Origin: an uncultured Prevotellaceae bacterium
GTDB lineage: Bacteria > Bacteroidota > Bacteroidia > Bacteroidales > Bacteroidaceae
DNA: 64,000 nt
Assembly (NCBI GenBank): GCA_900316285.1
Contig: ONCG01000001.1
Span: forward strand, 213,422-277,421
Direction of reading: 5' to 3'
Shown: positions 526-61,255 of the stretch, one piece after another
How the letters are laid out: every line of letters starts with the position of its first letter
Numbering within the stretch: position 1 is the first letter of the stretch
Made by a program: the position numbers and the translations under genes
Notes under the pieces: generated by a model
Told to the model about the DNA's origin: nothing
Databases searched by the model: none
The model's input: only the letters and a program-made list of their open reading frames with translations

Positions 526-558
526 CCCCCTCCTTTTTGGGAGGGGTTAGGGGTAGGC
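526..558 (-). repeat. GC-rich hairpin element copy abutting the fusA stop codon
   Basis: CCCCCTCC-ttttt-GGGAGGGG followed by TTAGGGGTAGGC. The reverse complement is GCCTACCCC-taa-CCCCTCCC-aaaaa-GGAGGGGG. It ends 3 nt from the fusA stop (562-564). Confidence 0.8.
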
Positions 559-561
559 TCC

Positions 562-2679
562 TTACACCAGGTCGGCACGACCCTTCACCTCCTCGAGCAC
601 AGCCTTGGCGATAGAGCTTGAGAGCGGTGCGTGGTGATCGTACTCCATAGAGCTGGTGGCACGACCAGAGGTGATGGTGCGCAAAGCGGTGACATAGCCG
701 AACATCTCAGCCAGGGGAACCATAGCCTTGATGATGCGGGCGCCAGAGCGAGCCTCGTCCATGCCTTCCACCTGACCGCGACGCTTGTTCAGGTCACCGA
801 TCACATCACCCATGTTCTCCTCAGGAGTCACAACCTCCACCTTCATGATCGGCTCCATCAGAGCGGGACCGGCCTTCGGGCAGATGTTCTTATAGGCGTT
901 GATGGCAGCGAGCTCGAACGACAGCTGGTCGGAGTCCACGGGGTGGAACGAGCCATCGACGACGGTCACCTTCAGACCTGTCATGGGATAGCCACCAAGG
1001 ATACCATTCTTCATGGCAGTCTCGAAGCCCTTCTGGATGGAAGGAATGTATTCCTTAGGAATGTTACCACCCTTCACTTCGTTGATGAACTGCAGGTCGC
1101 CCTCGGTGTAGTCGGGATCCTTCGGACCGACGTTCACGATGATGTCAGCGAACTTACCGCGACCACCCGACTGCTTCTTGTAGACCTCACGATGGTTCTC
1201 AACAGTGCGTGTGATAGCTTCCTTGTAGTTCACCTGAGGCTTACCCTGGTTGCACTCCACCTTGAACTCACGCTTCAGGCGGTCGATGATGATATCGAGG
1301 TGCAGCTCACCCATACCGGAGATAATGGTCTGGCCACTCTGCTCGTCGGTACGTACGGTGAATGTCGGGTCTTCCTCAGCCAGCTTGGCAAGTCCGTTGT
1401 CGAGCTTGGCAATGTCGGCCTGGCTCTTCGGCTCCACGGCAATCGAGATCACCGTGTCGGGGAAGGTCATCGATTCCAGCACGATGGGATGCTCCTCGTC
1501 GCAGAGGGTGTCACCCGTGCGGATGTCCTTGAAGCCAACGCCTGCGCCGATGTCGCCAGCGTCGATAGACTCCATGGGAATCTCCTTGTTAGAGTTCATC
1601 TGGAACAGACGACTGATGCGCTCCTTCTTACCAGAACGGGGATTGTAGACGTAGCTACCAGCCTTCACGCTACCCGAGTAGACACGGAAGAACACCAGAC
1701 GACCCATGTAGGGATCGGTGGCAATCTTGAATGCCAGGGCAGCAGTGGGCTCGCTTTCGCTAGGCTTGCGGCCTTCCTCCTCATCGGTGTTGGGATTCAC
1801 ACCCATCACAGCCTCGGTGTCGAGGGGTGAGGGCAGGAATGCGCACACGTAGTCGAGCAGCGGCTGCACACCCTTGTTCTTATACGAAGAACCGAGCACC
1901 ATCGGAGTAACCTCCATCGAGCAGCAGCCCTTACGCAGGGCAGCGATGATCTGTGCCTCGGGAATCTCCTGACCCTCAAGGTACTTCTCCATCAGATCGT
2001 CGTCGAAGTTGGCGGCAGTCTCGATCATCTTCTCGCGCCACTCGTTAGCTTCGTCAACGAGGTCGGCGGGAATGTCCTCGATGTCGTACTCAGCACCCAT
2101 GGTCTCATCGTGCCACAGGATGGCCTTCATCTTGATGAGGTCAACAACGCCCTTGAAGTTCTCTTCTGCACCGATAGGAATCTGCACGGGGCAGGGGTTG
2201 GCACCGAGGATGTCCTTCATCTGCTGAACAGTCTCAAAGAAGTCAGCACCCGAACGGTCCATCTTGTTCACATAGCCGATGCGGGGAACGTTGTACTTGT
2301 CAGCCTGGCGCCACACGGTCTCCGACTGCGGCTGTACGCCGTCAGCTGCCGAGTAGGTAGCCACAGCGCCATCAAGCACACGGAGCGAGCGCTCCACCTC
2401 AGCGGTGAAGTCTACGTGTCCCGGAGTGTCAATCAGGTTGATCTTGAATTGCTTATTGTCGTAATTCCAGTTACATGTTGTTGCAGCAGAAGTGATGGTG
2501 ATACCACGCTCCTGCTCCTGAGCCATCCAGTCCATGGTTGCTGCACCGTCGTGCACCTCACCGATTTTGTGAGTCTTACCTGTGTAGAACAGAATGCGCT
2601 CTGAAGTTGTTGTCTTACCGGCATCGATGTGAGCCATGATACCGATGTTGCGAGTCAAATGTAAGTCGCGATTTGCCAT
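562..2679 (-). CDS. fusA: Translation elongation factor G
   Basis: 705 aa; GTPase motifs [21 protein letters not shown]; full-length EF-G architecture. Confidence 0.98.
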
Positions 2680-13514: not shown

Positions 13515-13763
13515 TCTATTCTGCCGTAACAGCCTTGTTTTCGACTTCACATAAACTTCACTTTTGGTGAAATGCCCTATTTGTGAGCTACCTTTTGCAC
13601 ACGAGCAGACTCTTCCTTTCGGGCAGACACGGGGGCTGCTCCTACCTTTGGGTGTTTGTTGCGATAACACGAGCCGCAGGCTCTTTTCACTTTTAACTTT
13701 TCACTTCGCGCTTGCGCGGCGGTCTGCCCCTACGGCTAGATGGCGACAACGCTGGCGCGCAAC

Positions 13764-13790
13764 TCCCCTCCTTTGGAGGGGCGGGGGAGG
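13764..13790 (-). repeat. GC-rich hairpin element copy abutting the stop of the TPR regulator gene
   Basis: TCCCCTCC-tttg-GAGGGG-CGGGGGAGG. It ends 1 nt before the stop codon at 13792-13794. Confidence 0.7.
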
Positions 13791-13791
13791 T

Positions 13792-15195
13792 TTATAATGA
13801 CATCACAAACTGATTCAACTCGTCGGCCGTGCCCTCACGCTCAAACATCCGGGTGAAGAGGCGTTTGCGGGCATTGGTCGTAGCCTGCTGAGTGCGATGG
13901 AAGATGTTTGAAATCTGCAGGTTGCCCAGTCCCAACCGAATCAGACAGCACATGCGCAGCTCGGCAGGTTTTATCTTCGGATAGAACACCACGAGGCGGT
14001 TCACGAAACCATCGGCATGCTCGTTCAGCAACGCCTGCAGCTGCGACCATGCGTCATCGCCCAATTCGCCACTACCGCCCTGCCCAATGCGCTCGCAATC
14101 GGCATAGACTGCCGACTGACGGAAGGCTGCCAGCAGACGGTCTTGCTGTGAGCGGTTCTGCTCTTGGGCGGCTAGTCGCTGTTCCTCCTGTCTACGGCTC
14201 TGCGTAACCACCTGCGCCTGCAGGCGTCGCATTCGCCAGCGGAAGAAGGCCGCCACGCCTGCCACGGCCAGCAAAGCCAGCAACGCCACGCCCCAGAGGC
14301 GCAGCCGTAGCCGTCCGTTCTCGCGCTCCACACCAATCTGGTCTTCCAACGACGACACCAGGTCGCCATTCTCACGCACGGTCTGACGGTTCACGCTGTC
14401 CATCATCGCCACACACTCCATGGCACTCAGCCACGCCGACTCGTAGCGGCCGTTGCCGCTCTCCATCTGTGAAAGCAGCATCGTCGCCGCAGCATGTGTC
14501 TTCACGTTTGCACTCTCGCTGGCACGCAGCAACGCCTCTTCAGCTTCTGCCTCACGGCCAAGCCATAGCAGCGCACGCCCGCGAGCCAGCCACATCGCTC
14601 CAACGCCGTCCTCCTCCTGTTTCCCAGAGGCCGACGGGCTGCCAAGTTCAGCCGAACGCTCCAGCCTGTCCATCTCCTCCAACAACCGGCTCACCTGCTC
14701 CTTGTCGCCCTGCTGCAACGCCACATCCATCCACTCGGGCCAGAGGTCGGCACGAGCCTCATCGAGATGTGCCGCCTGTGCCAGCCCGTCGGCCTTTTCG
14801 AAACAGTTGGCAGCCGAGGCTATCCATTCCGGCGACCGCAGACACCGCGACATATCGCGCAGCGCATACACCATGTGCAGCGTGTCGCTACTCGACTGCG
14901 AAAGGTCGAAAGCACGACGGAAGGCCGTCAGGGCATCGTCACGATTGCCTGCCAACAGCTGCAGATTGCCCATGGCAAGCGTGGCCTCCACCGCCCACTG
15001 CGATGTACCGCCCTCCTCCTGTGCCAGCCTGTAGGCCTTCAGCGCATCGCCCTTCCGGCCCTGTTGCTCCAGCTGACAGCCTTCGCGGTAGTGGTCCTCG
15101 GCACTGTTGCGGCCCAAGCAGCCCGCCAGCACCATTGTTGCCACCACCAGCAATACGGCCCATCGGCATTCCGTTCTGATCATTTTTCTCTTCAT
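13792..15195 (-). CDS. Membrane-anchored TPR-repeat protein with a C-terminal HTH-like domain (putative regulator)
   Basis: I set the start at ATG 15195 (MKRKMIRTE...LAGC lipobox-like); the ORF-track start at 15231 is a TTG. The protein has TPR-like repeats, one internal TM segment, a coiled region, and a C-terminus (ELRMCCLIRLGLGNLQISNIF...ATTNARKRL) that resembles an HTH. Confidence 0.7.
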   Translation of the reverse strand: MKRKMIRTECRWAVLLVVATMVLAGCLGRNSAEDHYREGCQLEQQGRKGDALKAYRLAQEEGGTSQWAVEATLAMGNLQLLAGNRDDALTAFRRAFDLSQSSSDTLHMVYALRDMSRCLRSPEWIASAANCFEKADGLAQAAHLDEARADLWPEWMDVALQQGDKEQVSRLLEEMDRLERSAELGSPSASGKQEEDGVGAMWLARGRALLWLGREAEAEEALLRASESANVKTHAAATMLLSQMESGNGRYESAWLSAMECVAMMDSVNRQTVRENGDLVSSLEDQIGVERENGRLRLRLWGVALLALLAVAGVAAFFRWRMRRLQAQVVTQSRRQEEQRLAAQEQNRSQQDRLLAAFRQSAVYADCERIGQGGSGELGDDAWSQLQALLNEHADGFVNRLVVFYPKIKPAELRMCCLIRLGLGNLQISNIFHRTQQATTNARKRLFTRMFEREGTADELNQFVMSL

Positions 15196-15200
15196 GACTG

Positions 15201-15208
15201 CAAAGATA
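15201..15208 (-). promoter_or_regulatory. Candidate -7 box (TATCTTTG) directly upstream of the TPR regulator start
   Basis: Plus-strand CAAAGATA, only 5 nt from the ATG at 15195. This implies a leaderless mRNA or use of a downstream start (ATG at 15183). Confidence 0.35.
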
Positions 15209-15388
15209 CGATGAAATGAGCGAATCACCAAATCTTTTGAAAAGAAACAAAGAAACCATTGCTTTCAGCACCTTTCGCGGTGGTTTCTACTACTCTCATG
15301 CTGTTCCGCAAGCATGTAGGACACCCTCTTCACAGCTTTTCAAATCGAAGCTATCTGCATTCACAAACTTACAACAATCATGCATATT

Positions 15389-32293: not shown

Positions 32294-32434
32294 CAGCAAT
32301 TTTTCGAATCTGCCAAATTTTTCTGCGAATTTTCATTCCAGAGGGCGAAAAAAATATATTATTTGACAAAGAATGATTCGTGCTCATTTGTGTAATTTGT
32401 GTTCGATGTTATCCCATAAAAAGGTTTATGCGCG

Positions 32435-32695
32435 TTTTGACCTCACATACTCCAGAAATCTTCTGAAATGCCTTTGTACAAAGGAATTGAGGCACGGGAG
32501 GTCACAACGAGGAACCTCCCGTCAACCTCCCGTTTTTCATTACCTACAAGACTAGGAGAATAAGGGATTTTGCGCTCTGATTAGGAACGCCCCCAAGACA
32601 GGAGGTTGGCGGGAGGTGTGACGGGATGTTACAAAAATTGCAAGTGCTTGATACAGAAGTGGTTAAGAGCAAAATGGGTGTATGTGAGGTCAAAA
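32435..32695. other. 261-bp module bounded by a 16-bp perfect inverted repeat, with a nested second inverted repeat
   Basis: The outer repeat is TTTTGACCTCACATAC (32435-32450) against GTATGTGAGGTCAAAA (32680-32695). The inner pair is CCTCCCGTCAACCTCCCG (32515-32532) against CAGGAGGTTGGCGGGAGG (32599-32616). The inner arms sit 64 and 63 nt inside the outer ends. No ORF is present. Confidence 0.75.
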
Positions 32696-32721
32696 TGAGA
32701 AGGATCTTTCTTTTCGAAGAC

Positions 32722-32918
32722 GGGAATTAATGCTTTCGGAGACTGGGAGCAATGCTTCCGAACACCCAAAGCAATGCTTTTAAAGGCCAAGAGCATAGCT
32801 TCGGACCTCTAAAAGCAATGCTCTAGACGGCTGAGAGCAATGCTCTGGATGATAGAGAGCAATGCTCTGGAAGCTAAGGAGCATAGCTCTGGTGGTAAGG
32901 AGCATAGCTCTTCATTGA
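32722..32918 (+). repeat. 22-bp phased palindrome array (9 units), locus 2
   Basis: Cores AGCAATGCT / AGCATAGCT begin at 32726, 32748, 32770, 32792, 32814, 32836, 32858, 32880 and 32901 (the last step is 21 bp). Confidence 0.9.
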
Positions 32919-33026
32919 TGCGGATGATATGAGAAAGAGATGAGAAAGGATGACGATTTGAACCCAATAAAAATGGATTTATGGCATAAAGTTTCTTATT
33001 TCTCACCGATATTGATTAGAATTGAG

Positions 33027-33034
33027 TAATTTTG
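33027..33034 (+). promoter_or_regulatory. Candidate -7 box (TAATTTTG) for glycerate kinase
   Basis: TAATTTTG lies 26 nt upstream of the ATG at 33060 and only 11 nt from the ATG at 33045. Confidence 0.5.
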
Positions 33035-33059
33035 CAAAATCAATATGAATGAAGTCAAT

Positions 33060-34214
33060 ATGGGCAAGATCATAGTAGCCATCGATTCGTTCAAAGGCTG
33101 CCTGGCATCTGCAGAGGCTAATCGGGCAGCGGTGGAGGGTATTCTCGCAAGAATGCCTGAGGCTGAGGTGTTGTCGATTCCCGTCAGCGACGGTGGCGAA
33201 GGTTGGCTGGAGGCGTTTAGGAGCCCCACTCCTACCCCCTCCCCAGTAGGGAGGGGAACTAGCCCTACCCCGCCCCTCACCAGTGGGGAGGGAAACCCTA
33301 CTCCAACCCTCCCCAGCAGGGAGGGTGTCCTAGTGGAGGTGGAAGTGAGAGATCCGCTCATGCGACACATTTCAGCACCGTATTTGGTGATGGGCGATAC
33401 GGCTGTGATTGAGATAGCCAAGGCCAGTGGACTGACGCTACTCAATGAAGAAGAGCGCAATCCGATGATTGCAACCAGCTACGGCACTGGGCAACTTGTG
33501 GCTGATGCGGTTCGCCGAGGATGCAGACATATTATCGTTGGGCTTGGCGGAAGTGCGACGAGCGATTGCGGGATAGGTATGCTCCGTGCCATCATCGACA
33601 GTTTTGCCAAGCACGGTTCATGGGATGATGTCCACGAGCTCGATGCCGTTCATTTCACGATTGCAACCGATGTCACCAATCCTTTGTGTGGAGAGAACGG
33701 AGCCGCTCATGTATTTGCCCCACAAAAGGGGGCCACACAGGAAATGGTCCAGTTGCTCGATGCCCGTGCTAAACGGTTTGCCGAAGTCTCTGCCAGACAC
33801 TTCGGCTACGATTGTCAGAATGAGCCTGGTGCAGGAGCCGCAGGCGGACTTGGCTATGCGTTCTTGCAATATATGAATGCTGAACGTCAGTCGGGCATCG
33901 ACCTCCTGTTCGACACGATTGGGTTCGACAGGCTGTTGGACGATGCTTCCCTCGTCATTACAGGCGAAGGAGCCTCCGACCGACAAACGCTGATGGGCAA
34001 GGTTCCTTATGGAATCCTGCAACGTGCCAAGGCGCATCAGGTGCCCGTTGCCCTGATAGCAGGCCGCATTGAAGACCGCCAAGAGCTACTTAACGCGGGT
34101 TTCTCTCAAGTGGTTTGCATCAACCCACCGAATCTGCCCGCCGAAGAAGCCATGAAGCCAGAAACGGCGAAGAGGAACATTTTCGATACGATGCAGCTTC
34201 TCACTTTTTCTTAG
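33060..34214 (+). CDS. glxK: Glycerate kinase carrying an in-frame repeat insertion
   Basis: MGKIIVAIDSFKGCL...PVSDGGEGW...GGSATSDCGIGM...PGAGAAGGLG...VITGEGASDRQT are GlxK/GarK family blocks. I preferred the start at 33060 because MKIV-type N-termini are typical and the -7 box is too close to 33045. Confidence 0.9.
   Translation: MGKIIVAIDSFKGCLASAEANRAAVEGILARMPEAEVLSIPVSDGGEGWLEAFRSPTPTPSPVGRGTSPTPPLTSGEGNPTPTLPSREGVLVEVEVRDPLMRHISAPYLVMGDTAVIEIAKASGLTLLNEEERNPMIATSYGTGQLVADAVRRGCRHIIVGLGGSATSDCGIGMLRAIIDSFAKHGSWDDVHELDAVHFTIATDVTNPLCGENGAAHVFAPQKGATQEMVQLLDARAKRFAEVSARHFGYDCQNEPGAGAAGGLGYAFLQYMNAERQSGIDLLFDTIGFDRLLDDASLVITGEGASDRQTLMGKVPYGILQRAKAHQVPVALIAGRIEDRQELLNAGFSQVVCINPPNLPAEEAMKPETAKRNIFDTMQLLTFS
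33223..33329 (+). repeat. Three tandem in-frame copies (33-nt period) of the GC-rich hairpin element inside glxK
   Basis: CCT-ACy codons recur at 33231, 33264 and 33297. Each unit contains CCCCTCCC-loop-GGGAGGGG or a one-mismatch variant. The units encode PTPSPVGRGTS / PTPPLTSGEGN / PTPTLPSREGV. Confidence 0.9.
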
Positions 34215-34256
34215 AAGCCAACATCAGAAGGCGGATGGCAAGAGATGTCAGGCCGC

Positions 34257-34493
34257 CTACTTATTCAGTTTGTTCCAGATCCACAGAACTACTACGGCAC
34301 CAATAACGGCTGTACCGATGTTACTGAACCAGCTGGGTTGCCAAGAAATACCGAGCAGTCCCAGCAACCAGTTGCCGACGACACCACCTACGAGTCCGAG
34401 GAACAGGTCAATCCAGCAGCCTTTTCCTTCGCCGCCGGTAAGTTTAGCGGCAATAAAGCCAGCCAAGATTCCAGTGATAATTGCTTCAATCAT
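34257..34493 (-). CDS. GlsB/YeaQ/YmgE-family stress-response membrane protein
   Basis: 78 aa, MIEAIITGILAGFIAAKLTGG...GLVGGVVGNWLLG, with Gly-zipper TM helices. Confidence 0.85.
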   Translation of the reverse strand: MIEAIITGILAGFIAAKLTGGEGKGCWIDLFLGLVGGVVGNWLLGLLGISWQPSWFSNIGTAVIGAVVVLWIWNKLNK

Positions 34494-34659
34494 AATTACT
34501 TCAATTTTAAAACTATATTCTATCAGTTATTGTGAAGACAACAAGAACAACTTGGAACAACATGTAGTTGTTGATGGTTCTTTCTCCGCGTCGCTACGAA
34601 AGCGGCAGAGCCGAGCGGTCTATGTTGTCTTTGGAAATAATATACGCTAGGTCGTTTTC

Positions 34660-37727: not shown

Positions 37728-37860
37728 TCTAAACTGGGCTCTAGGTTCTAGTTTCTGGTTTCGAGTTTCGAGTTTCTGGTTTCAAGTTTCTCGTTTCGAA
37801 CTACTCTAAAAACTCTCAACTCTAAACTGACTCTCAACTCTAAACTCTCAACTCTAAACT
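37727..37860. repeat. Intergenic spacer made almost entirely of heptamer-phased repeats
   Basis: Eight in-phase heptamers GTTTCnn occupy 37744-37799. They are followed by about eight heptamers CTCTmAA / CTnAACT (37801-37860), which are reverse-complement-like to the first set. Confidence 0.85.
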
Positions 37861-40716: not shown

Positions 40717-40731
40717 AATGCGGCTATTGGT

Positions 40732-42610: not shown

Positions 42611-42632
42611 CGTTTTTCGTCTGTTTTCATTG

Positions 42633-42640
42633 CAAAAGTA
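42633..42640 (-). promoter_or_regulatory. Candidate -7 box (TACTTTTG) for the SpoIIM-like to pepP gene chain
   Basis: Plus-strand CAAAAGTA, 23 nt upstream of the ATG at 42610. Confidence 0.5.
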
Positions 42641-42652
42641 GATATTATTTTT

Positions 42653-42660
42653 TAATTTTG
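42653..42660 (+). promoter_or_regulatory. Candidate -7 box (TAATTTTG) for the RDD gene
   Basis: TAATTTTG lies 31 nt upstream of the ATG at 42691. It forms a back-to-back divergent promoter pair with 42633-42640. Confidence 0.5.
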
Positions 42661-42690
42661 CAAGCGAAACAGGAAAAAACGTCAATCACA

Positions 42691-43398: not shown

Positions 43399-43434
43399 AG
43401 TGCTCCACCCCGGGGTGGGGCACTTGTGTTTTGG
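43399..43434 (+). terminator. GC-rich hairpin plus a weak T-run after the RDD gene
   Basis: AGTGCTCCACCCC / GGGGTGGGGCACT followed by TGTGTTTTGG. Confidence 0.5.
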
Positions 43435-43673: not shown

Positions 43674-43704
43674 AACTCTAAGCTCTAAACTCTAAACTCT
43701 AAAC
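43674..43704. repeat. Heptamer repeat (AACTCTA, about 4.5 copies) just upstream of the mdh -7 box
   Basis: AACTCTA-AGCTCTA-AACTCTA-AACTCTA-AACT. Confidence 0.8.
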
Positions 43705-43711
43705 TTTTTTG

Positions 43712-43780: not shown

Positions 43781-44773
43781 ATGGCATTTTTAACTAACGA
43801 CAAACTCGTCATCGTCGGCGCAGCCGGCATGATCGGTTCCAACATGGCTCAGTCGGCTCTGATGATGGGCCTCACGAGCAACCTGTGTCTCTACGACGTG
43901 TTCTCACCCGAAGGCGTAGCTGAGGAAATGCGCCAGAGCGGCTTCGACGAAGCCACCATCACCGCTACCACCGATGCCGAAGAGGCATTCCGCGGAGCTA
44001 AGTACATCATCTCCTCTGGTGGTGCTCCCCGTAAGGAAGGCATGACACGTGAGGACCTGCTCGCAGGCAACTGCAAGATAGCCGAGGAGCTGGGTAAGAA
44101 CATCCAGAAGTTCTGCCCCGACGTGAAGCACGTCGTCATCATCTTCAACCCCGCCGACCTCACCGGCCTCGTCACGCTGCTCTATAGCGGACTGAAACCC
44201 TCACAGGTAACAACCCTCGCTGCCCTCGACACCACTCGTCTGCAGAGCGCACTTGCCAAGAAGTTCGGTGTGAAGCAGAGCGAGATCAAGGGCTGCGCCA
44301 CCTATGGTGGTCACGGCGAGCAGATGGCTGTGTTCGGCTCTCACGTAGAGATTGCCGGTCGCAAGCTCATCGACATCATTGGTACACCTGAGTTCCCCGC
44401 TGAGGAGTGGGAGCAGATGAAGAAGGACGTCACCCAGGGTGGTGCCGCCATCATCAAGTTGCGTGGCCGTTCCAGTTTCCAGAGTCCGTCTTATCTCTCT
44501 GTTGAGATGATTCGTTCGGCTATGGGCGGCGAACCTTTCCGCTTCCCCGTCGGAACCTATGTGAAGACTGACAAATACGACCACATCATGATGGCCATGA
44601 AGACCACCCTCGACGTTACGGGTGCCCACTTCGAAGTGCCTCAGGGTCTGCCCGAGGAGAACGCCAAGCTCGATGCCAGCTATGAGCACCTCTGCAAGAT
44701 GCGCGACGAGCTCGTGACGCTGAACATCGTACCGCCCATCGCTGAGTGGTCGAAGATCAACCCGAACCTGTAA
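43781..44773 (+). CDS. mdh: Malate dehydrogenase (Bacteroidota 330-aa type)
   Basis: Rossmann motif VIVGAAGMIGSNMA. LDH/MDH family blocks are present throughout the length. Confidence 0.85.
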   Translation: MAFLTNDKLVIVGAAGMIGSNMAQSALMMGLTSNLCLYDVFSPEGVAEEMRQSGFDEATITATTDAEEAFRGAKYIISSGGAPRKEGMTREDLLAGNCKIAEELGKNIQKFCPDVKHVVIIFNPADLTGLVTLLYSGLKPSQVTTLAALDTTRLQSALAKKFGVKQSEIKGCATYGGHGEQMAVFGSHVEIAGRKLIDIIGTPEFPAEEWEQMKKDVTQGGAAIIKLRGRSSFQSPSYLSVEMIRSAMGGEPFRFPVGTYVKTDKYDHIMMAMKTTLDVTGAHFEVPQGLPEENAKLDASYEHLCKMRDELVTLNIVPPIAEWSKINPNL

Positions 44774-44806
44774 GCCCCACCCCTGCCCTCCCCTGTAGGG
44801 AGGGGG
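44774..44806 (+). repeat. GC-rich hairpin element copy abutting the mdh stop codon
   Basis: GCCCCACCCC-TGCCCTCCCC-tgta-GGGAGGGG begins at the first base after the TAA (44771-44773). Confidence 0.85.
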
Positions 44807-55913: not shown

Positions 55914-56154
55914 ATCATTGCCTTTTTGGGACTAGAGCACCGTGTTCGCGGAATTTCACTATGGTAAAAAGTTCTTTTCACCACAATAAATTGCTCTTTT
56001 GACCATAGTAAATGACCCGTGAAGTATATTTTCTGCGGTTTACAGCTATTTTTTTACAAATCAGAAATAGGGGTTTTCGTGCGTTTTGCCGTTATAAGGG
56101 ATGAAGTCAATTGATTTTCAGTGAATGCAAAAGAAGAAAAAAAAAACGGAAGAC

Positions 56155-58923
56155 ATGAAGAAAAAAATAATCTTTCTAATATTATGGATGTTGCCGGTGG
56201 TGGGCTGGGCTCAGGGCCCAGCCACTATCCGACAAGTGATGGACGAGATGCACCGCACGCGCGGCGTGAACTTCGTCTACGACTCGTCACTCAACGTGGG
56301 GCAGGCGTACAAGGGCCCCGATGTGAAAGCGCTGCCGCTGAAGGAGGCGCTGCAAAGGCTGTTCCGAGACTCGGGCATCGGCTACACCATGAAGGGGAAG
56401 TACGTGATGCTAAAAGCTTACCCCCAGCCCCTCCCTAAGGAAAAGGGAAAAACGAAGCGGTGGACGGTGAGCGGCTACGTACGCGATGAACAGGGCGAGA
56501 CGCTGCTGAATGCGACTGTCTTCGACCTGACCAGTGGCCAGGGCACGATGACCAACGAGCATGGTTTCTACTCACTGACGTTGCCTGAGGGCGAGCATCG
56601 GCTGCGCGTGAGCTACATTGGCTTCGAGGATAAGAACGAGACCGTAAGCCTGCATGCCAACCGCTCCCACCTTTTTATATTAAAGGAGAACGCGCGCGTG
56701 AGCGAGGTGGTGGTAACGGCCGATCTGAACTCGCCCGTGACGGGCACACAGATGGGTAAGCGGTCGCTGTCGCAGCAGGACATCAAGATGGAGTTCTCGC
56801 TGCTCTCGTCGCCCGACGTGGTGAAGACATTGCAGCGTCTGTCGGGTGTGCAAGAGGGTATCGAGGTGGCCTCGGGCCTCTACGTGCATGGCGGCAACAA
56901 CGACGAGAACCTCTTCCTCATCGACGGCACACCGCTCTACCAAATCAACCACTCGCTGGGACTCTTCTCCTCGTTCAATGCCGACGTGGTGAAGAACGTG
57001 GACTTCTACAAGAGCGGCTTCCCTGCCCGCTATGGCGGCAGGCTATCGAGTGTCGTCGACGTGCGCACGAACGACGGCAACTGGGAACGCCTGCACGGCT
57101 CCTATCGCATCGGGATGCTCGACGGAGGGTTTCAGCTGGACGGACCCATCAAACTGAAAAGCGAGAAGCGGAGGGAGGAGAATGGAGAGGTGCGCGGTGT
57201 AGACTTTGGCACCTCCTTCAACATCGGGCTGCGCCGCTCATGGCTCGACCTGCTGACTCGGCCAGCCTTCGCCATTGCCAACCACTACAACGACGAGGAG
57301 AAGATTACGCTGGCCTACGACTTCTACGACCTGAACGCAAAACTGACGCACATCTTCAACCGCCGCTCGCAGATGAACCTGAGCATCTACAACGGACAGG
57401 ACGCGCTCAGCACGAAGGACGACTGGCGTGAAGCCTGGAGTGGTGAAGACTACAGTAAGCTGAGCTACCACGATATCTACAAGAACCGATTCCGCTGGGG
57501 CAACCTGAACGCCGCGCTGAACTGGCGCTACCAGTTCTCGCCGAAGCTGCTGGCGAACTTCACCGCCGTCTATACCCACAACCGCGCCTCGCTGCTCACC
57601 ACCGACGACGAGCAATCCTTCGACGAAGAAGACAACATAAACGACCATACCTACATTGAACACAACTACCGCTCCACCATCAGCGACCTGGGCTACCGTT
57701 CGGAGTTCGACTACCGACCATCGCCGCACCACCACATCCGCTTCGGCCACGACTACACCTTCCACCAGTTCCGACCGCAGACACGTTCGCAGGTGTATCT
57801 GTGGGGTGTGCAGGAGGAGGCCGACAGCCTCACGGGCAGCAGCCATAACCACCACGCAGCCCATGAGCTGACTGTCTACGGCGAAGACCAGCTGACGCTC
57901 AGCGACCGCTGGAGCCTGAACGGTGGCCTGAACCTCTCGCTCTTCGGCATCAGCGGCAAGGCGTTTGTGGGCGTCGACCCGCGCCTGGCCCTAAAATACC
58001 AGCTGCGCGAGGACCTCTCGGCCAAGGCTTCCTACACGATGATGACGCAGTATGTACACAAGATTTCAAACTCCGTGTTGGAGTTGCCCACCGACTACTG
58101 GGTTCCAACGACTAAACGGCTGCGCCCCATGCACTCGCAGCAGTGGGCAGCAGGCATCTATTGGAACCCGCGACTGCGCAACCACGCGAGCCTGACACTC
58201 TCGCTGGAGGGCTACTATAAACTATCGCGCAACCTGTTGCAATATAACTCGTGGGGCGGACTGGTGCCGCCAGCACAGAGCTGGGACCAACTGGTGAGCG
58301 TGGGCCGCGGCCGCTTCTACGGACTGGAGCTCGACGCGCAGTATCGCACGAAGCGCCTGCAGGCCGACCTGGCCTACACGCTGTCGTGGAACGAGCGCCG
58401 CTTCGACGACTTCTATGAGAAGTGGTATCCCGACAAGTTCGACAACCGTCACAAGCTGAACCTCTCGCTGCGCTACAGCTTCAGCAAGAAGACGCAGATG
58501 TATGCCGCCTGGACCTACCACACGGGAAACCACATGACGTTGCCCACGCAGTATGTGCAGATGCCCACGCTGCCGAAAGGGGAGGCCTACCCCCAGCCCC
58601 TCACTGAAGGGATGGGAGTCTTTGCGGACGGGTATACTCATGGGGAATTCATCTATGAGCGGCCCAACAACATCACGCTGCCTGCCTATCACCGGCTCGA
58701 CGTGGGCTTCAACTTCCACCACACCACGAAGCACGGCCACGAACGCATCTGGAATCTCTCCGTCTATAATGCCTACTGCCACCTGAACCCGCTATGGGTG
58801 GACATCGAATACAAGGAACTGAAGGAAAACAAGGTGAACTTGAACGGGCACGAGAGCTTCAGCGTGAAGACACGTGGTTACATTCCCATCATCCCATCGG
58901 TGAGTTACACGATTAAGTTTTAG
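56155..58923 (+). CDS. TonB-dependent receptor with an N-terminal STN-like signalling domain and a CarboxypepD_reg domain
   Basis: I chose the ATG at 56155 (MKKKIIFLILWML...AQG). The order is an STN-like domain, then CarboxypepD_reg (VSGYVRDEQGETLLNATVF), a plug, and a beta-barrel ending ...SVSYTIKF. Confidence 0.88.
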   Translation: MKKKIIFLILWMLPVVGWAQGPATIRQVMDEMHRTRGVNFVYDSSLNVGQAYKGPDVKALPLKEALQRLFRDSGIGYTMKGKYVMLKAYPQPLPKEKGKTKRWTVSGYVRDEQGETLLNATVFDLTSGQGTMTNEHGFYSLTLPEGEHRLRVSYIGFEDKNETVSLHANRSHLFILKENARVSEVVVTADLNSPVTGTQMGKRSLSQQDIKMEFSLLSSPDVVKTLQRLSGVQEGIEVASGLYVHGGNNDENLFLIDGTPLYQINHSLGLFSSFNADVVKNVDFYKSGFPARYGGRLSSVVDVRTNDGNWERLHGSYRIGMLDGGFQLDGPIKLKSEKRREENGEVRGVDFGTSFNIGLRRSWLDLLTRPAFAIANHYNDEEKITLAYDFYDLNAKLTHIFNRRSQMNLSIYNGQDALSTKDDWREAWSGEDYSKLSYHDIYKNRFRWGNLNAALNWRYQFSPKLLANFTAVYTHNRASLLTTDDEQSFDEEDNINDHTYIEHNYRSTISDLGYRSEFDYRPSPHHHIRFGHDYTFHQFRPQTRSQVYLWGVQEEADSLTGSSHNHHAAHELTVYGEDQLTLSDRWSLNGGLNLSLFGISGKAFVGVDPRLALKYQLREDLSAKASYTMMTQYVHKISNSVLELPTDYWVPTTKRLRPMHSQQWAAGIYWNPRLRNHASLTLSLEGYYKLSRNLLQYNSWGGLVPPAQSWDQLVSVGRGRFYGLELDAQYRTKRLQADLAYTLSWNERRFDDFYEKWYPDKFDNRHKLNLSLRYSFSKKTQMYAAWTYHTGNHMTLPTQYVQMPTLPKGEAYPQPLTEGMGVFADGYTHGEFIYERPNNITLPAYHRLDVGFNFHHTTKHGHERIWNLSVYNAYCHLNPLWVDIEYKELKENKVNLNGHESFSVKTRGYIPIIPSVSYTIKF
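56416..56450 (+). repeat. Degenerate GC-rich element copy, in-frame in the TonB receptor (domain linker)
   Basis: GCTTACCCCCAGCCCCTCCC-taaggaaaa-GGGAAAAA encodes AYPQPLPKEKGK. It shares the 15-nt TACCCCCAGCCCCTC with the copy at 58585. Confidence 0.65.
58585..58616 (+). repeat. GC-rich element copy, in-frame in the TonB receptor (barrel loop)
   Basis: GCCTACCCCCAGCCCCTCAC-tgaa-GGGATGGG encodes AYPQPLTEGMG. Confidence 0.7.
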
Positions 58924-58954
58924 GCCCACCCCTACCCCTCCCCATGGGAGGGGC
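58923..58954 (+). repeat. GC-rich hairpin element copy abutting the TonB receptor stop codon
   Basis: GGCCCACCCC-TACCCCTCCCC-at-GGGAGGGG starts at the last base of the TAG (58921-58923). Confidence 0.88.
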
Positions 58955-58996: not shown

Positions 58997-60130
58997 ATGA
59001 TGAATAGAACAACAATACTCAAGCGCCTCAAAAAGGTGCTGCTCAGTACTATTTTGCTACCCCTCCCTTGGGGAGGGGCAGGGGTGGGCCTCACTTCCTG
59101 CACCGACCACTACGACCTGGACAAGCTGCAGAACACGTCGAAGCTGGTGGTCTACTGCTTCCCGGCTACTGACGACACCACCTACATCAGCGTGACGGCC
59201 AGCGTGGCCGTAAAGAAGTTCACCGACACCCGAGGCATCCGCCCGCTCGACGACGCACAGGTCGTCTATCGCGTGAACGGACAGGAGCGGCCCGTGCATC
59301 AGCTCTCGGCCCTGCTGCCAGGCGAGGACGAGGCCAATGGCGTGTTCTACGTGCTCGGAGGCCATCAGCCCGGCGACCGCGTGGAAATCCGTGTCAGCCA
59401 TCCTGACTACGGCGAGGCCACGGCTGAAGCTACTGTGCCCGACGCCGTGCCCGTGAGCCTCGACCGCGTCGTGACCACCACAGAGTTCGACCCCGACTGG
59501 TATGACACCCGCACCTTCCACAAGCTGCTGGCCACTTTCACCGACCCTGCCACGACCGCCGACTACTATGCCGTGCGCGTCGTTCAGAAGCAATACGCCG
59601 GTTCGGCCACGGGCCACGTCTACGAAGGTGGACAGGAAATCAGCACGTGGTACATCAGCAACATCGACGACTACCGGCGCCTGTGTGAGCAATATCCCAC
59701 CATCGTGTGGGAGGTGGAGGTGAGCGACTCCACCATCAGCTGGCCCGAAATCGTCATCAACGACGAGCCGCTGCTGAATCCGCTCAGCGAGATAGACTCC
59801 GACTTCGGTTTCTCGTCCGACTTCTACGGCGGCTTCTGCATCTTCAGCGACGAGCAAATCAGCGGACAGACCTACACGCTGCATCTGAACATCCCCACCT
59901 ACAACCACCGCGGACAGGAAAACTCCTGGGGCGAGGCCTACAGCGTGCTGCTCTACCGCATCTCGCCTGAGTTCTACCGGTTCCTGAAGTCCTACAACGA
60001 CATGGCCAACAACGAACTGGCACAAGGCGGTTTCGCGCTGGTGCCCCCCACACTCTCCAACGTCAACGGCGGCTTCGGCCTGCTCGGCACCTATGCCACA
60101 GGCTGGAGCGACTGGAAAAGAACGGAATAA
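58997..60130 (+). CDS. DUF4249-family lipoprotein (TonB-receptor partner)
   Basis: 377 aa with lipobox LTSC. KLVVYCFPATDDTTYISVTAS and the C-terminal SNVNGGFGLLGTYA fit the DUF4249 pattern (from memory). Confidence 0.75.
   Translation: MMNRTTILKRLKKVLLSTILLPLPWGGAGVGLTSCTDHYDLDKLQNTSKLVVYCFPATDDTTYISVTASVAVKKFTDTRGIRPLDDAQVVYRVNGQERPVHQLSALLPGEDEANGVFYVLGGHQPGDRVEIRVSHPDYGEATAEATVPDAVPVSLDRVVTTTEFDPDWYDTRTFHKLLATFTDPATTADYYAVRVVQKQYAGSATGHVYEGGQEISTWYISNIDDYRRLCEQYPTIVWEVEVSDSTISWPEIVINDEPLLNPLSEIDSDFGFSSDFYGGFCIFSDEQISGQTYTLHLNIPTYNHRGQENSWGEAYSVLLYRISPEFYRFLKSYNDMANNELAQGGFALVPPTLSNVNGGFGLLGTYATGWSDWKRTE
59057..59090 (-). repeat. GC-rich hairpin element copy (inverted relative to 58923-58954) inside the DUF4249 signal peptide
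   Basis: CTACCCCTCCC-ttg-GGGAGGGG-CAGGGGTGGGCC. Its reverse complement matches the 58923 copy at about 29 of 32 positions. It encodes LPLPWGGAGVGL. Confidence 0.88.
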
Positions 60131-60136: not shown

Positions 60137-61255
60137 ATGAAAATGACGATGAATACATTAAGAAGAATTCTCATCAATCGTCTCAGCTCACTGACAACCC
60201 TTCCCTCAGTGGGGGGCTTGGGATGGGCTGTCGCCTTGTGGCTCGGGGTGGCCCTTACCTCCTGCACTGACGACAACGACGAGCAGCGCATCAGCGGCGT
60301 GCAGGCTTCGGTAGAAGCACCCGTGCTGACCTTCTACATAGAGGACACGGACGGCAACGACCTGCTGGCCAATGGCGACGGGCTAAGTGTGTTCTGCAAG
60401 GAGACGGGCGAGCCGTTGCCTTTCACCCTCGGGCAGGATGAAGTGATGTTGTGGCAGCACAGGGAGCCAACGAACGTCAACGTGCTGACCGTCACGCTTC
60501 CCACGCCCTATCACAGCACTGACGACAAGGAATTTGTCTACACCCTCGACCCGACGCTCGCCATCCTGACCGACGGATTGAGTCAGCCCGTCGAGGTGAA
60601 GATCTTCTACGACTACGACCTGCGCTACGAACACGACGACAACGGCCTGCGCACTGCCGTCGTTGACTACAAGCCCAAGAACATCAGCTTCGGCAACCAT
60701 GAGCTGCAACACGACACGCTGCACGTCATCGCAGAGGACAGCTACCCCTACCTGCGCGTTGATGGCGACACGCTTCGTGTGCAACTGCGATTCCCGGCTG
60801 CAGATGCTCCCTTGCCCCAGCTGTCGTGGGACGACGAGTCGCAATGCTGGACGGGCGACGCCATGCAATGCCGCATGCAACTGGACGGGCGCATCATCGC
60901 CAAGCCGCATGAAACCATCGCGACAAGCCGTCACGCAGAACGTGTCGTCAGCGGCGAAGGCCAGCTGTGCGACAGCATCTACGACGCCATAGACCTCAGC
61001 TTTCCGCTGCCTTACATCTATGGCATGGACGAAAGCTACACGCACAGCCATTTCCGCTTCACGCTCTCCATGCAAAGCCCGCAACTCTTCGGCGACAACC
61101 ATGAGCACTCGCTGCAGCTGTTGCTCAACCAATGGAAAAGCGACATTGAACGTAAACAAATCAATGTCTGGCAGACATACCTCGACGGCCAAGAACTCGA
61201 CACACCATCCTACTATATTGGCTACCCATATCATATAACTCTAAACTGGAAATAA
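60137..61255 (+). CDS. Hypothetical lipoprotein
   Basis: 372 aa with lipobox LTSC. No family recognised. It starts 7 nt after the DUF4249 gene. Confidence 0.7.
   Translation: MKMTMNTLRRILINRLSSLTTLPSVGGLGWAVALWLGVALTSCTDDNDEQRISGVQASVEAPVLTFYIEDTDGNDLLANGDGLSVFCKETGEPLPFTLGQDEVMLWQHREPTNVNVLTVTLPTPYHSTDDKEFVYTLDPTLAILTDGLSQPVEVKIFYDYDLRYEHDDNGLRTAVVDYKPKNISFGNHELQHDTLHVIAEDSYPYLRVDGDTLRVQLRFPAADAPLPQLSWDDESQCWTGDAMQCRMQLDGRIIAKPHETIATSRHAERVVSGEGQLCDSIYDAIDLSFPLPYIYGMDESYTHSHFRFTLSMQSPQLFGDNHEHSLQLLLNQWKSDIERKQINVWQTYLDGQELDTPSYYIGYPYHITLNWK
60198..60228 (-). repeat. Degenerate GC-rich element copy inside the signal peptide of the 60137 lipoprotein
   Basis: CCCTTCCCTC-agt-GGGGGG-CTTGGGATGGGC encodes LPSVGGLGWA, in the same frame as the copy at 59057. 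Confidence 0.6.

Follow-up and report, generated by a model that had tools for sequence, protein, structure and literature searches.

In the window analysed here, a stretch of 64,000 nucleotides from a rumen Prevotella, a gene for glycerate kinase carries three tandem copies of a G/C-rich hairpin with its reading frame preserved, and hairpins of the same kind lie elsewhere in the window next to stop codons. This raises the question of whether an intergenic repeat has entered and multiplied within an enzyme gene, and of what became of the enzyme. Very probably, the array is a tandem of a small G/C-rich repeat whose usual home is just past stop codons, and which was inserted and then amplified in the glycerate kinase gene. 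The gene, the array and the related copies are listed in Table 1.

Table 1. Glycerate kinase gene, repeat array and related repeat copies in the window.
Feature	Coordinates	Strand	Remarks
Glycerate kinase gene	33045..34214	+	389 codons from ATG 33045; PF02595, TIGR00045, 3cwc, Foldseek
Expanded loop R59-V95	33219..33329	+	37 residues vs 7 in insert-free orthologues
Unit 1, 39 nt, AGCCCCACTCCTACCCCCTCCCCAGTAGGGAGGGGAACT	33222..33260	+	perfect 8-bp hairpin; encodes SPTPTPSPVGRGT
Unit 2, 33 nt, AGCCCTACCCCGCCCCTCACCAGTGGGGAGGGA	33261..33293	+	imperfect hairpin; encodes SPTPPLTSGEG
Unit 3, 33 nt, AACCCTACTCCAACCCTCCCCAGCAGGGAGGGT	33294..33326	+	perfect 8-bp hairpin; encodes NPTPTLPSREG
Intergenic copy	526..559	-	2 nt past TAA of EF-G gene (562..2679, minus)
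Intergenic copy	13760..13794	-	2 nt past TAA of TPR protein gene (13792..15231, minus)
Intergenic copy	44772..44806	+	directly after TAA of malate/lactate dehydrogenase gene (43781..44773)
Intergenic copy	58921..58953	+	directly after TAG of TonB-dependent receptor gene (56125..58923)
Inverted copy in 5' end of DUF4249 lipoprotein gene (58997..60130)	59058..59092	-	encodes signal-peptide LPLPWGGAGVGL
Degenerate copy in signal-peptide region of adjacent lipoprotein ORF (60137..61255)	60196..60229	-	encodes TTLPSVGGLGWA; E 0.0014
Degenerate in-frame copy near C-terminus of TonB-dependent receptor ORF	58583..58615	+	encodes PKGEAYPQPLTEGMGV; E 0.003

Tandem Repeats Finder placed a repeat at 33236-33325 (period 33, 2.6 copies, 78% matches, score 106) and a repeat search recovered three copies whose starts lie 37 and 33 nt apart; the two agree on the three in-frame tandem hairpin copies in glycerate kinase that a sequence-only reading of this DNA had described. 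That reading had given a 33-nt unit recurring three times; the tandem repetition stands, but the units measure 39, 33 and 33 nt. The hairpins of the insert are of the CCCTCCC/GGGAGGG type, with perfect 8-bp stems found by the repeat search at 33236-33243/33249-33256 and 33306-33313/33319-33326, and the hairpin of unit 2 is imperfect. Unit 3 has a DNA hairpin z-score of -3.05, and the RNA fold of the array one of -3.15, a value that speaks for a structured segment and is silent on function. The core of the element, CCCTCCCCAGTAGGGAGGG, searched with at most 3 mismatches, matched 6 times in the window against 0.00 expected from 100 shuffles.

Between the conserved blocks ...DGGEGWLEAF and LVEVEVRDPL the insert encodes RSPTPTPSPVGRGTS-PTPPLTSGEGN-PTPTLPSREGV, with reading frame and peptide exactly as first given; the hairpin itself is read as PSPVGRG in unit 1 and, in another frame, as L[PT]S[GR]EG in units 2 and 3. 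The expanded loop lies between the helix with the invariant DGGEG and the first strand of the next domain, and the net gain is 30 residues over insert-free orthologues (37 versus 7) or 33 over the Salmonella structure 3cwc, rather than the approximately 36 extra residues estimated at first. In an AlphaFold model of moderate quality (mean pLDDT 70.8, alignment of 25 sequences), residues 64-91, between helix 52-59 and strand 95-102, have a pLDDT below 50; the insert is predicted to be a flexible, disordered loop, in line with the surface loop proposed before, and it is presumably translated as part of glycerate kinase and probably neutral.

The ORF, for which many annotations use the alternative start ATG 33060 (384 aa), matches the class I glycerate kinase profiles over their full length, scoring 382.8 bits (E 2.1e-114; cut-off 23.3) against Pfam PF02595 and, as protein, 344.5 bits (cut-off 168.45) against NCBIfam TIGR00045; two equivalog models that bear on regiospecificity (2-kinase versus 3-kinase) are far under their cut-offs (NF007401, 239 versus 625; NF007668, 232 versus 686). 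The family-profile match falls into three stretches, with one break at the insert according to the HMMER alignment to 3cwc (E 4e-61), which is interrupted between query residues 59 and 93. Foldseek assigned the moderate-confidence model to the two-domain glycerate kinase fold, with 3cwc (E 4e-25) and 1to6 (E 4e-21) as best matches and TM-scores of 0.62-0.71. Outside the insert dN/dS is 0.08-0.13 (about 0.1) over 354 codons, and among insert-bearing alleles it is 0.094-0.127, including the comparison of the window with locus L091 at a dS of 1.0. DGGEG and more than 150 further alignment columns are invariant, an intact ORF is kept by more than 100 alleles, to which NCBI gives the name glycerate kinase, and synteny around the gene is conserved. 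The substitution pattern indicates that the glycerate kinase with its insert stays under purifying selection and, together with the intact alleles and the TIGR00045 score, bears out the view that the gene has not been broken. It is scarcely credible that the gene is decaying or unexpressed and that the array is tolerated since the gene no longer matters: nothing positive speaks in favour of this, the selection signal already contradicts it, as do the intact, NCBI-named alleles and the conserved synteny, and a terminator and promoter scan of 32400-34700, with counts at shuffle level, placed no such site within the insert. Nor is the tandem array an assembly artefact, since the identical protein is present on 11 contigs (NCBI, ENA, Logan) and independent assemblies account for the more than 100 variant alleles.

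The polarity of the change follows from the orthologue alignment, in which a 7-residue loop, EAFQAAMGGEIVEV, stands at this position in about 75 Prevotellaceae species (orthologues L002-L080, P0113-P0120) and likewise in the solved enterobacterial glycerate kinase structure; the long loop is an insertion rather than ancestral. Among 118 close homologue clusters, the loop has 7 residues in 8 clusters, 13 in 4, 22-26 in 11, 35-38 in 91, 46-48 in 2 and 52 or 61 in 2, and the steps 7, 13, 22-26, 35-38 and 46-48 correspond to 0 to 4 units. Comparison of the DNA gave alleles with 0, 1, 2, 3 and 4 units whose boundaries are orthologous, so that the copy-number variation suspected earlier does occur among relatives, in whole-unit steps. 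The closest alleles (at least 96% identity) uniformly have three units and whole-unit changes appear at about 92-95% identity; slippage is therefore not fast, and the variation lies between sister lineages and does not represent rapid phase variation.

Since the single-copy allele has a net gain of only 18 nt, native codons were replaced, and a search of glxK found neither a target-site duplication nor a clean empty-site junction; judging from these alleles, the first insertion was not a clean cut-and-paste event. Unit 3 resembles the sole unit of single-copy alleles and would be orthologous to it, and unit 1 probably goes back to a separate event or to a copy that has diverged. In other lineages the same loop holds unrelated palindromic inserts, of 42 nt in L067 and of 60 nt in L018 (with a copy in L024), and a 72-nt element is nested in the loop of L087, with copies in L048 and L001. 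The glycerate kinase loop thereby appears as a permissive site that has been struck independently by other palindromic elements.

We propose that one 33-nt unit would have entered the gene in an ancestor of this Prevotella lineage, replacing most of the 7-residue surface loop that joins the DGGEG helix to the following beta-strand. It would have persisted there because the unit has a length divisible by three and reads through in this frame without a stop codon, and because the loop can accommodate a flexible Pro/Thr/Ser/Gly segment. A 39-nt unit would have been added upstream later, and the 33-nt unit would then have been duplicated or lost as whole units, giving alleles with 0 to 4 units, likely because the structure-prone repeats promote replication slippage or unequal recombination. 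A different view of the same alleles is that the Pro/Thr-rich segment has been selected as a functional module, for instance a linker altering domain motion, oligomerisation or localisation, and that its likeness to the repeat reflects origin only. The good conservation of the last unit, PTPTLPSREG, would fit such a module but is equally explained by recency or by a DNA-level hairpin constraint, and the predominance of three units (91 of the 118 clusters), the retention of the insert across a dS of about 1.0 and its position at a domain junction, a few residues past the invariant DGGEG, have to be weighed against the persistence, in intact ORFs, of alleles with one, two and four units, with 2-residue deletions and with a 24-residue nested insert, which argues that insert length and sequence matter little. 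As the segment is also predicted to be disordered and unrelated inserts occupy the same loop in other lineages, we consider a selected module very unlikely and retain insertion and amplification of a repeat.

Besides the array, the window contains four family members that abut stop codons and three inside other ORFs, and this agrees with the earlier observation of the element as a non-coding unit. The four (526, 13760, 44772, 58921) lie 0-2 nt past the stop, their C-rich arm being in the sense strand of the gene that precedes them. The units in the gene can be aligned with them over about 34 nt, including a 5' extension, GCCCyACCCCT, beyond the hairpin, and an nhmmer profile built from the window copies recovers both gene units and intergenic copies (E 1e-5 to 4e-3); the insert therefore belongs to the intergenic repeat family, as had been supposed. 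The consensus shared by 9 aligned window copies is aGCCCyACCCCTrc-CCCTCCCC-loop-GGGAGGGG, the nearest intergenic relative of unit 1 is the copy at 44772-44806, and the copies at 58921-58953 and 59058-59092 form an inverted pair. The site after the dehydrogenase stop codon, filled in the window, is empty in L085 and L086, which are 93-98% identical across the syntenic region; comparison of these sequences shows a recent insertion of the repeat family. Further in-frame cases are found in lipoprotein signal peptides, in a DNA-alkylation-repair gene in L048 and in ValRS and CysRS in metagenome loci. Rfam searches at gathering thresholds of the window and of L048, L001 and L087 returned tRNAs only, with no known RNA family over the element, and a scan of viral contigs with the core pattern gave 0 matches. 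When sequence strings (GGGGAGGGG and the like) were searched in the literature, the papers returned dealt only with eukaryotes or G-quadruplexes; searches for Prevotella with REP or MITE yielded nothing of relevance.

In-frame selfish palindromes are already known from Rickettsia RPEs and intragenic REPs. RPEs (Ogata et al. 2000; summaries in PMC10969869 and PMC3733652) are selfish palindromes that occur between genes and in frame in functional housekeeping genes, their encoded peptide being thought to lie where the fold is undisturbed. The Prevotella element likewise occurs both between genes and in frame within unrelated genes that stay functional, with orthologues that lack it, whereas RPEs, going by these summaries, are about 100-150 bp long, reside in an obligate intracellular alphaproteobacterium, encode a conserved peptide and are without the triplex-type architecture described below. 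With a unit of 33 nt in a different host, homology to the Rickettsia families is implausible, and the likeness can be taken as analogy only. We know of no description of RPEs as tandemly amplified, copy-number-variable arrays.

Intragenic REPs (GTAG- or CGTC-tagged; Di Nocera et al. 2013, PMC3733652) are 20-40 bp long and some lie in known genes. A REP mobilised by a RAYT, an IS200/IS605-like tyrosine transposase, and landing within the gene by chance would account for a G/C-rich palindrome of 20-40 bp found mostly just downstream of ORFs; as here, REP ends abut and often supply the flanking stop codon, and within genes REPs occur as dimers or groups encoding 20-30 residues (PMC3733652). Some loops (CAGTAGGG) contain GTAG, as does GGGGTAGGG on the reverse strand. 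A REP carries its tag at one end of the hairpin, at the 5' foot. The tag geometry here is wrong, however, as CTAC precedes the hairpin, so that GTAG follows it on the reverse strand, and CTGC replaces CTAC in several copies. Tag and tag position thus differ from those of REPs; the Prevotella element has a third block, a non-palindromic C-tract, in addition; grouped REPs are mostly head-to-head dimers, whereas the Prevotella array consists of direct tandem units with population copy-number variation; and there is no RAYT gene among the ORFs examined, which were those of the 64-kb window only. Membership of the REP/RAYT family was rejected on tag geometry (CTAC or CTGC before the hairpin, GTAG or GCAG after it on the other strand) and on the lack of tag conservation among copies, and a chance REP insertion is very unlikely.

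What the sequence-only reading had missed is that the element is a three-block motif of a described triplex-type class, BoxC/PIT/TM. It is composed of a C-tract, CCCyACCCC, a second C-tract, CCCCTCCCC, a loop of 3-5 nt and a G-tract, GGGAGGGG, of which blocks 2 and 3 make the hairpin. The reverse strand reads CCCCTCCC-N3-5-GGGAGGGG-N2-3-GGGGTGGG, a block order C-G-G that matches the purine-type intrastrand-triplex motifs BoxC, PIT and TM. An ITxF-like scan for C-G-G blocks, with stems of at least 8 nt, loops of 1-6 nt and no more than one mismatched triplet (C-G*G, T-A*T/A), detected 5 motifs in the window, unit 1 among them; 20 shuffles yielded 0. Unit 1 is a class II triplex motif on the minus strand (33225-33256, stem 8, one mismatched triplet), and the copies at 44772, 58921, 59058 and 13760 are supported by the scan; the copy at 58583 has support with a relaxed mismatch setting, and units 2 and 3 and the copy at 526 pass only with two mismatched triplets allowed and look like decayed triplex motifs.

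Like BoxC, PIT and TM_ECO (Hoyne and Maher 2000, 2002; PMC4666352), the element is about 30-37 nt long and G/C-rich, with a C-stem and two G-stems of 8-9 nt each and loops of 1-6 nt; it occurs in many copies per genome, with loops more variable than stems and with inverted pairs, displays local sequence instability between close strains, and has no known function or mover. The TM_ECO pattern CCCTCNCCC-N3-6-GGGNGAGGG-N3-GGGNGAGGG itself is not matched, the stems being CCCCTCCC / GGGAGGGG / GGGGTGGG with a second loop of 1-3 nt, and the stem CCCCTCCCC stands where TM_ECO has CCCTCNCCC; the element shares the architecture and belongs to a different sequence sub-family. TM_ECO has been catalogued in Proteobacteria and is exclusively intergenic in E. 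coli MG1655 (Holder et al. 2015, PMC4666352), whereas the element of this rumen Prevotella (Bacteroidota) also lies in frame within genes and in a tandem direct array; its intergenic copies, unlike TM_ECO, abut stop codons in one orientation, and units 2 and 3 are degenerate as triplex motifs, unlike the BoxC/PIT/TM_ECO class. The same study linked TM elements to local genome instability, found no stable triplex in vivo and saw triplex only in isolated single strands; PIT elements block DNA polymerase in vitro (Hoyne and Maher, as cited in its introduction). The hairpin rather than the triplex may be the relevant structure. With its four G-tracts the reverse strand may also be read as a G-quadruplex motif; we prefer the triplex, since the A/T register at the centre is compatible with T-A*T triads and agrees with the described class.

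The agent that moves the element is an inferred part of our explanation, and to our knowledge the BoxC/PIT/TM class has had no known origin since the 1990s. A tentative candidate is a cassette in which a DUF559 gene (Vsr-like, PD-(D/E)XK) lies between inverted triplex-hairpin motifs; it is possible, although we would not presume it, that the units are solo ends or MITE-like derivatives of such a cassette, mobilised in trans. The endonuclease would cut at or near the motifs or their targets, and repair would copy the cassette or only its ends into the 3' ends of genes and, occasionally, in frame into genes, which would supply a mover and so extends, but does not exclude, insertion and amplification of a repeat. 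In loci fetched by the motif only, DUF559 lies between inverted motifs in frame within tRNA-guanine transglycosylase (L145), LeuRS (L092) and ValRS (L151, which also bears a solo unit, SPTPALPEGEG), and between genes in L102, L180 and L189; a rumen Prevotella has a DUF559 cassette between argG and argC whose left motif abuts the argG stop codon. Four DUF559 genes were picked for termini that bore no tell-tale sequence; three of them (Flavobacterium, Nitrospinota, Elusimicrobiota) are flanked by motif pairs, and the fourth (Anaerolineaceae, L221) has no convincing flanking motif. In E. coli ycjD, a DUF559 gene, the 3' end contains a degenerate motif, a canonical BoxC/TM_ECO follows about 190 nt downstream, and motif-encoded peptides stand at the called termini in many of the best 120 DUF559 matches. 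Of the metagenome matches only low-GC, Pfam-checked cases were kept, ORF-context statistics being uninformative because of long spurious ORFs in high-GC contigs.

The Vsr/DUF559 clade also includes a characterised homing endonuclease, I-Bth0305I (PMC3424549), a Vsr-like (EDxHD) enzyme (Taylor et al. 2011, as cited there). As with such homing endonucleases, the DUF559 cassettes place a small PD-(D/E)XK Vsr-fold gene within conserved genes, here in frame in TGT, LeuRS and ValRS. Known Vsr-like homing endonucleases ride in group I introns or inteins, whereas neither was seen with the DUF559 cassettes, which are bracketed by inverted triplex-hairpin motifs and apparently translated through. There is, however, no DUF559 gene in the 64-kb window or in 91 Prevotella loci around glxK, and the glxK array is made of direct repeats. 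The association is a correlation from small samples that were in part selected by the motif, the motifs vary between cassettes (C6/G6, CCCTCTCCC, CCCCTCCCC), DUF559 genes may instead have landed beside pre-existing motifs, and no link of TM_ECO to transposons, phages or plasmids was found by Holder et al. (PMC4666352). In 25 papers that name DUF559, the mention is in passing only. More speculative still is the generalisation that BoxC/PIT/TM repeats stem from a DUF559 (Vsr-fold) cassette spread across phyla, as its terminal repeats and as solo or MITE-like derivatives, and that the cassette and its ends target the 3' ends of genes. If true, in-frame read-through would supply housekeeping enzymes with loops of the (S/T)PTPxLPxGEG type or with a complete endonuclease domain, and the copy-number-variable glxK array would be one visible outcome.

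The locus offers a natural series in which one enzyme under strong purifying selection carries 0, 1, 2, 3 or 4 selfish DNA units in one loop, and which lets one test how proteins take up peptide segments derived from junk DNA and how new loops originate. The array can be used as a strain-typing marker in this Prevotella lineage, and it cautions annotation pipelines, since extensions encoded by the motif at N- and C-termini are common, as are split domain matches. The main study of triplex repeats left the spreading agent open, and with DUF559 bracketed in E. coli (ycjD), Prevotella, Flavobacterium, Nitrospinota, Elusimicrobiota and unassigned metagenome contigs, there is a candidate for it that can be tested. 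In a dominant gut and rumen genus, triplex-type repeats move from intergenic into coding sequence, and the local hypervariability of the array fits the instability proposed for triplex motifs.

The open reading frame at 33045..34214 (+) encodes a protein of 389 residues that belongs to the glycerate kinase family (Pfam PF02595, E 2.1e-114; NCBIfam TIGR00045, 344.5 bits against a cut-off of 168.45). Within this gene, glxK, Tandem Repeats Finder places an array at 33236-33325 (period 33, 2.6 copies, score 106), and a repeat search returned three copies at spacings of 37 and 33 nt, with two perfect 8-bp hairpins, CCCCTCCC/GGGAGGGG and ACCCTCCC/GGGAGGGT. These results and the codon-level reading (Table) bear out the tandem in-frame hairpin repeat described by the sequence-only reading; there are indeed three units, but the first is 39 and not 33 nt long, its hairpin being read in another frame, and the gain is about 30-33 residues instead of about 36. 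The core sequence of the element has six matches in the window, with zero expected from shuffles.

Table. Repeat units, element copies and related features; positions are those of the window unless a relative or metagenome locus (L-number) is named
Feature	Position or locus	Strand	Detail
glxK insert, unit 1	33222-33260	+	39 nt, read as SPTPTPSPVGRGT
glxK insert, unit 2	33261-33293	+	33 nt, read as SPTPPLTSGEG
glxK insert, unit 3	33294-33326	+	33 nt, read as NPTPTLPSREG
Element copy	526-559	-	0-2 nt past EF-G stop codon
Element copy	13760-13794	-	0-2 nt past TPR protein stop codon
Element copy	44772-44806	+	0-2 nt past malate/lactate dehydrogenase stop codon
Element copy	58921-58953	+	0-2 nt past TonB-dependent receptor stop codon
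One-unit glxK alleles	L085, L091, L001		TTT AGG [AGCCCTACCCCGACCCTCCCCAGTAGGGAGGG]A GCG
Two-unit glxK allele	L089		39-nt unit and one 33-nt unit
Three-unit glxK allele	window		
Four-unit glxK allele	L088		
42-nt element in glxK loop	L067:7224-7274		
60-nt palindrome in glxK loop	L018:10154-10213		copy at L024:502-557
Second repeat	L087:425-504; L048:6262-6336; L001:5175-5254		
22-nt-periodic arrays	15455-15566; 32747-32910; 44952-45204		
ACGGGAGGT / AACCTCCCGTC-type repeats	32497-32533; 32597-32630		direct and inverted
DUF559 in tRNA-guanine transglycosylase (TGT)	L145:1127-2785	-	inverted triplex-hairpin motifs both sides
DUF559 in LeuRS	L092:1147-3216	+	inverted triplex-hairpin motifs both sides
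DUF559 in ValRS	L151:1160-4315	+	inverted triplex-hairpin motifs both sides

In an HMMER alignment, query residues 5-59 pair with residues 2-56 of 3cwc, a Salmonella glycerate kinase structure, and query residues 93-359 with its residues 60-347, so that query residues 60-92 have no counterpart, and nearly all of 80 species-level Prevotellaceae loci have a 7-residue loop (…DGGEGWLEAFQAAMGGEIVEVNVKDPL…). The same element does abut stop codons as a non-coding unit, as had been claimed, at four sites in the window, and at all four its C-rich arm lies on the sense strand of the upstream gene. Alignment of all copies extends the homology beyond the hairpin (aGCCCyACCCCTrc-CCCTCCCC-loop-GGGAGGGG), and a profile from the window copies picks up intergenic members as well as the units in the gene. 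A relative whose syntenic region is 93-98% identical lacks the copy behind the dehydrogenase gene (filled site in the window, TAA followed by GCCCCACCCC…GGGAGGGGGATGA and then CAATTAAT; empty site, TAA followed by TCAATTAAT), so the family has inserted recently, and precisely at a stop codon. The short-loop orthologues and the family copies after stops thus agree with the earlier proposal that an intergenic-type repeat invaded the enzyme gene, and the glxK insert is such an insertion. Native codons were replaced in the first insertion, which lengthened the gene by only 18 nt net, and no target-site duplication is visible in representative allele DNA.

Loop lengths form a stepwise series. Among the best 120 glycerate kinase matches, all from rumen Prevotella, the loop has 7 residues in 8 clusters, 13 in 4, 22-26 in 11, 35-38 in 91 and 46-48 in 2, and in a further 2 clusters it has 52 or 61 residues with a nested insert. 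Representative alleles differ by whole units at the DNA level: unit 2 of the window matches that of the two-unit allele and unit 3 matches unit 3 of the four-unit allele, so what separates the alleles is single 33-nt units gained or lost. The anticipated variation in copy number is seen among relatives, in whole-unit steps from 0 to 4, starting at about 92-95% protein or 92-94% nucleotide identity, but the closest alleles (at least 96% identical to that of the window, among these 120 matches) uniformly carry three units.

The window has other repeats too. The 22-nt-periodic arrays, with a palindromic core (GAGCAATGCTC / GAGCATAGCTC), are intergenic and look like putative phased binding sites; one array precedes glxK by 150-300 nt. 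Between that array and the S21 gene, likewise upstream of glxK, are the ACGGGAGGT / AACCTCCCGTC-type repeats. At ~36440-43770, about 7.3 kb with DUF58, vWA-like and neighbouring ORFs is represented in the otherwise syntenic L085 by 1.2 kb of other sequence.

Over 354 shared glxK codons dN/dS is 0.083-0.127, a range that includes pairs of insert-bearing alleles (dS 0.2-1.0), and DGGEG and more than 150 other alignment columns are invariant. The gene has not been broken by its insert on these measures, in line with the sequence-only reading, and as far as sequence can tell the kinase still works. Mapped onto an AlphaFold model, as that reading had proposed, the insert is predicted to follow helix 52-59 and precede strand 95-102, with pLDDT <50 at residues 64-91 (mean 70.8, shallow alignment); the best structural matches of the model are the glycerate kinases 3cwc and 1to6. 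A scan of the insert found no terminator-like site. Judging from the loci compared, the loop is evidently permissive, since other elements occupy it: a different 42-nt CCCTCCC…GGGAGGG element at the same position in another species (L067), a 60-nt palindrome in place of the loop in L018, with an 89%-identical copy in L024, and in L087 a 72-nt element nested within unit 2, of which L048 and L001 have copies at 91-95% identity. Inserts have repeatedly landed or survived in this loop.

The palindromic inserts of the L018 and L067 lineages are unrelated to that of the window. The short element shares both of its ends (5' GCCCCAyTCCGA…, 3' CCCC-loop-GGGG) with a second repeat, which is about 75-105 nt long and contains three hairpins. 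L087 has this second repeat nested in glxK unit 2, L048 has it in-frame in a DNA-alkylation-repair gene, and in L001 it precedes the glxK match, apparently between genes.

A loose metagenome scan with ACCCC…CCCTCCC…GGGAGGG gave matches of which those listed lie on contigs of 37-73% GC, most with a further, unforced C-tract directly 5' of the pattern. The general form is C4-N-C4-NN-C3-4TC3-4, loop, G3-4AG3-4, or CCCCTCCCC-loop-GGGGAGGGG-NN-GGGGTGGGG on the other strand, and so has the three blocks, C-G-G, by which purine-type intrastrand triplex motifs are built. Such motifs were named BoxC first, PIT elements next and TM_ECO in Holder et al. 2015 (PMC4666352), with the pattern CCCTCNCCC-N3-6-GGGNGAGGG-N3-GGGNGAGGG, 3610 copies across 262 proteobacterial genomes, an association with local genomic instability and no link found to transposons, phages or plasmids. 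An ITxF-like scan (stems of at least 8, at most 1 bad triplet, loops 1-6) found five triplex motifs in the window, unit 1 of the glxK insert among them, and 0 in 20 shuffles; units 2 and 3 pass only when two bad triplets are allowed. These scans suggest that the element belongs to the triplex architectural class, in a sequence sub-family different from TM_ECO. In MG1655 TM_ECO is always intergenic (PMC4666352), whereas the Prevotella element, in Bacteroidota, also occurs in coding sequence. No Rfam family matches it, and a REP/RAYT identity was rejected, as the GTAG tag varies among copies and flanks the hairpin on the wrong side.

Other genes also carry in-frame copies. In the window, the signal peptide of a DUF4249 lipoprotein contains LPLPWGGAGVGL, which comes from an inverted copy at 59058-59092; a degenerate copy likewise codes for signal peptide in the adjacent ORF, and another lies within a TonB-dependent receptor ORF. 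Among DUF4249 homologues, the majority have a signal peptide that is short and ordinary, and several others have similar PLPWGGxGxG segments. Two inverted copies, 105 nt apart, surround the DUF4249 gene start at 58921-59092; enclosed in this MITE-like pair are the start codon and the greater part of the signal peptide (MMNRTTILKRLKKVLLSTILLPLPWGGAGVGL). In other organisms, solo in-frame units occur in ValRS (SPTPALPEGEG after WWGHRIPVWY), CysRS and phosphoglycerate mutase, and in the L048 protein a long form of the element splits a DNA_alkylation domain. In-frame selfish palindromes are a kind already known from the Rickettsia RPEs (PMC10969869, PMC3733652), and intragenic REPs encode 20-30 residues (PMC3733652); what sets the glxK case apart is its tandem array of variable copy number, together with the class of element and the phylum of the host. 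By analogy, the insert would be a BoxC/PIT/TM triplex-type repeat behaving like an RPE.

One member of these ~33-nt structure-prone repeats, which insert beside stop codons, lies inside glxK and has been duplicated and deleted in whole units, with the enzyme under purifying selection throughout. Slippage during replication or unequal exchange between repeats has probably made the array grow and shrink, which would fit the instability and polymerase stalling reported for the triplex class (the latter as cited in the introduction of PMC4666352). Survivors would be only multiple-of-three additions, free of stop codons and in a tolerant loop; the observed insert lengths are 33, 39, 42, 60 or 72 nt, and no others. 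The encoded Pro/Thr/Ser/Gly segment is probably a passenger. We consider it highly probable that an intergenic-type triplex repeat was amplified in-frame in the constrained glxK, and the sequence-only interpretation is supported.

Pfam scans of motif-containing metagenome ORFs located a DUF559 (Vsr-like endonuclease) domain in-frame inside TGT, LeuRS and ValRS, each time flanked by inverted copies of the motif, one reading C-C-G and the other C-G-G; the hosts are low-GC organisms. Stand-alone DUF559 genes (L102, L180, L189) have the same inverted bracketing, and a rumen Prevotella cassette in the argG-argC interval reads TAG, then CCCCCCTCTGTCCCCCCAAAGGGGGG, DUF559 and CCCCCCCTTGGGGGGATAGAGGGGGG. 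When four DUF559 genes were picked for having no tell-tale termini, three (Flavobacterium, Nitrospinota, Elusimicrobiota) proved to be bracketed and the Anaerolineaceae gene had no convincing flanking motif; motif-encoded peptides lie at annotated ends in many of the best 120 DUF559 homologues. In E. coli K-12 the DUF559 gene ycjD (in L213, NC_000913.3 1351000-1352400) has a degenerate motif at its 3' end (…SPSP*); next comes a partial duplicate of the ycjD 3' end and, about 190 nt downstream of the gene, a canonical BoxC/TM_ECO (CCCCTCGCCCC-TCT-GGGGAGAGGG-TTA-GGGTGAGGGG). Beyond the right-hand motif of some cassettes (L180:1-1492 and protein records P0252, P0271, P0279 and P0307) stands a ~50-nt duplicate of the 3' end of the upstream host gene (…AQKLLGISLEGSVG), and the cassette would seem to rebuild the host-gene end that it interrupted. 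A characterised homing endonuclease belongs to the Vsr/DUF559 clade (PMC3424549). A possible but rather doubtful reading of this correlative evidence makes the motifs the termini, and also the solo derivatives, of an endonuclease cassette; DUF559 genes are absent from the window and from the 91 Prevotella glxK loci compared, and the link was not found in the searchable literature, of which our coverage was incomplete.

The glxK locus provides a clean natural 0-to-4-copy series within a constrained enzyme, and triplex repeats now extend into coding sequence in Bacteroidota, with the DUF559 lead on the element's mover adding interest.
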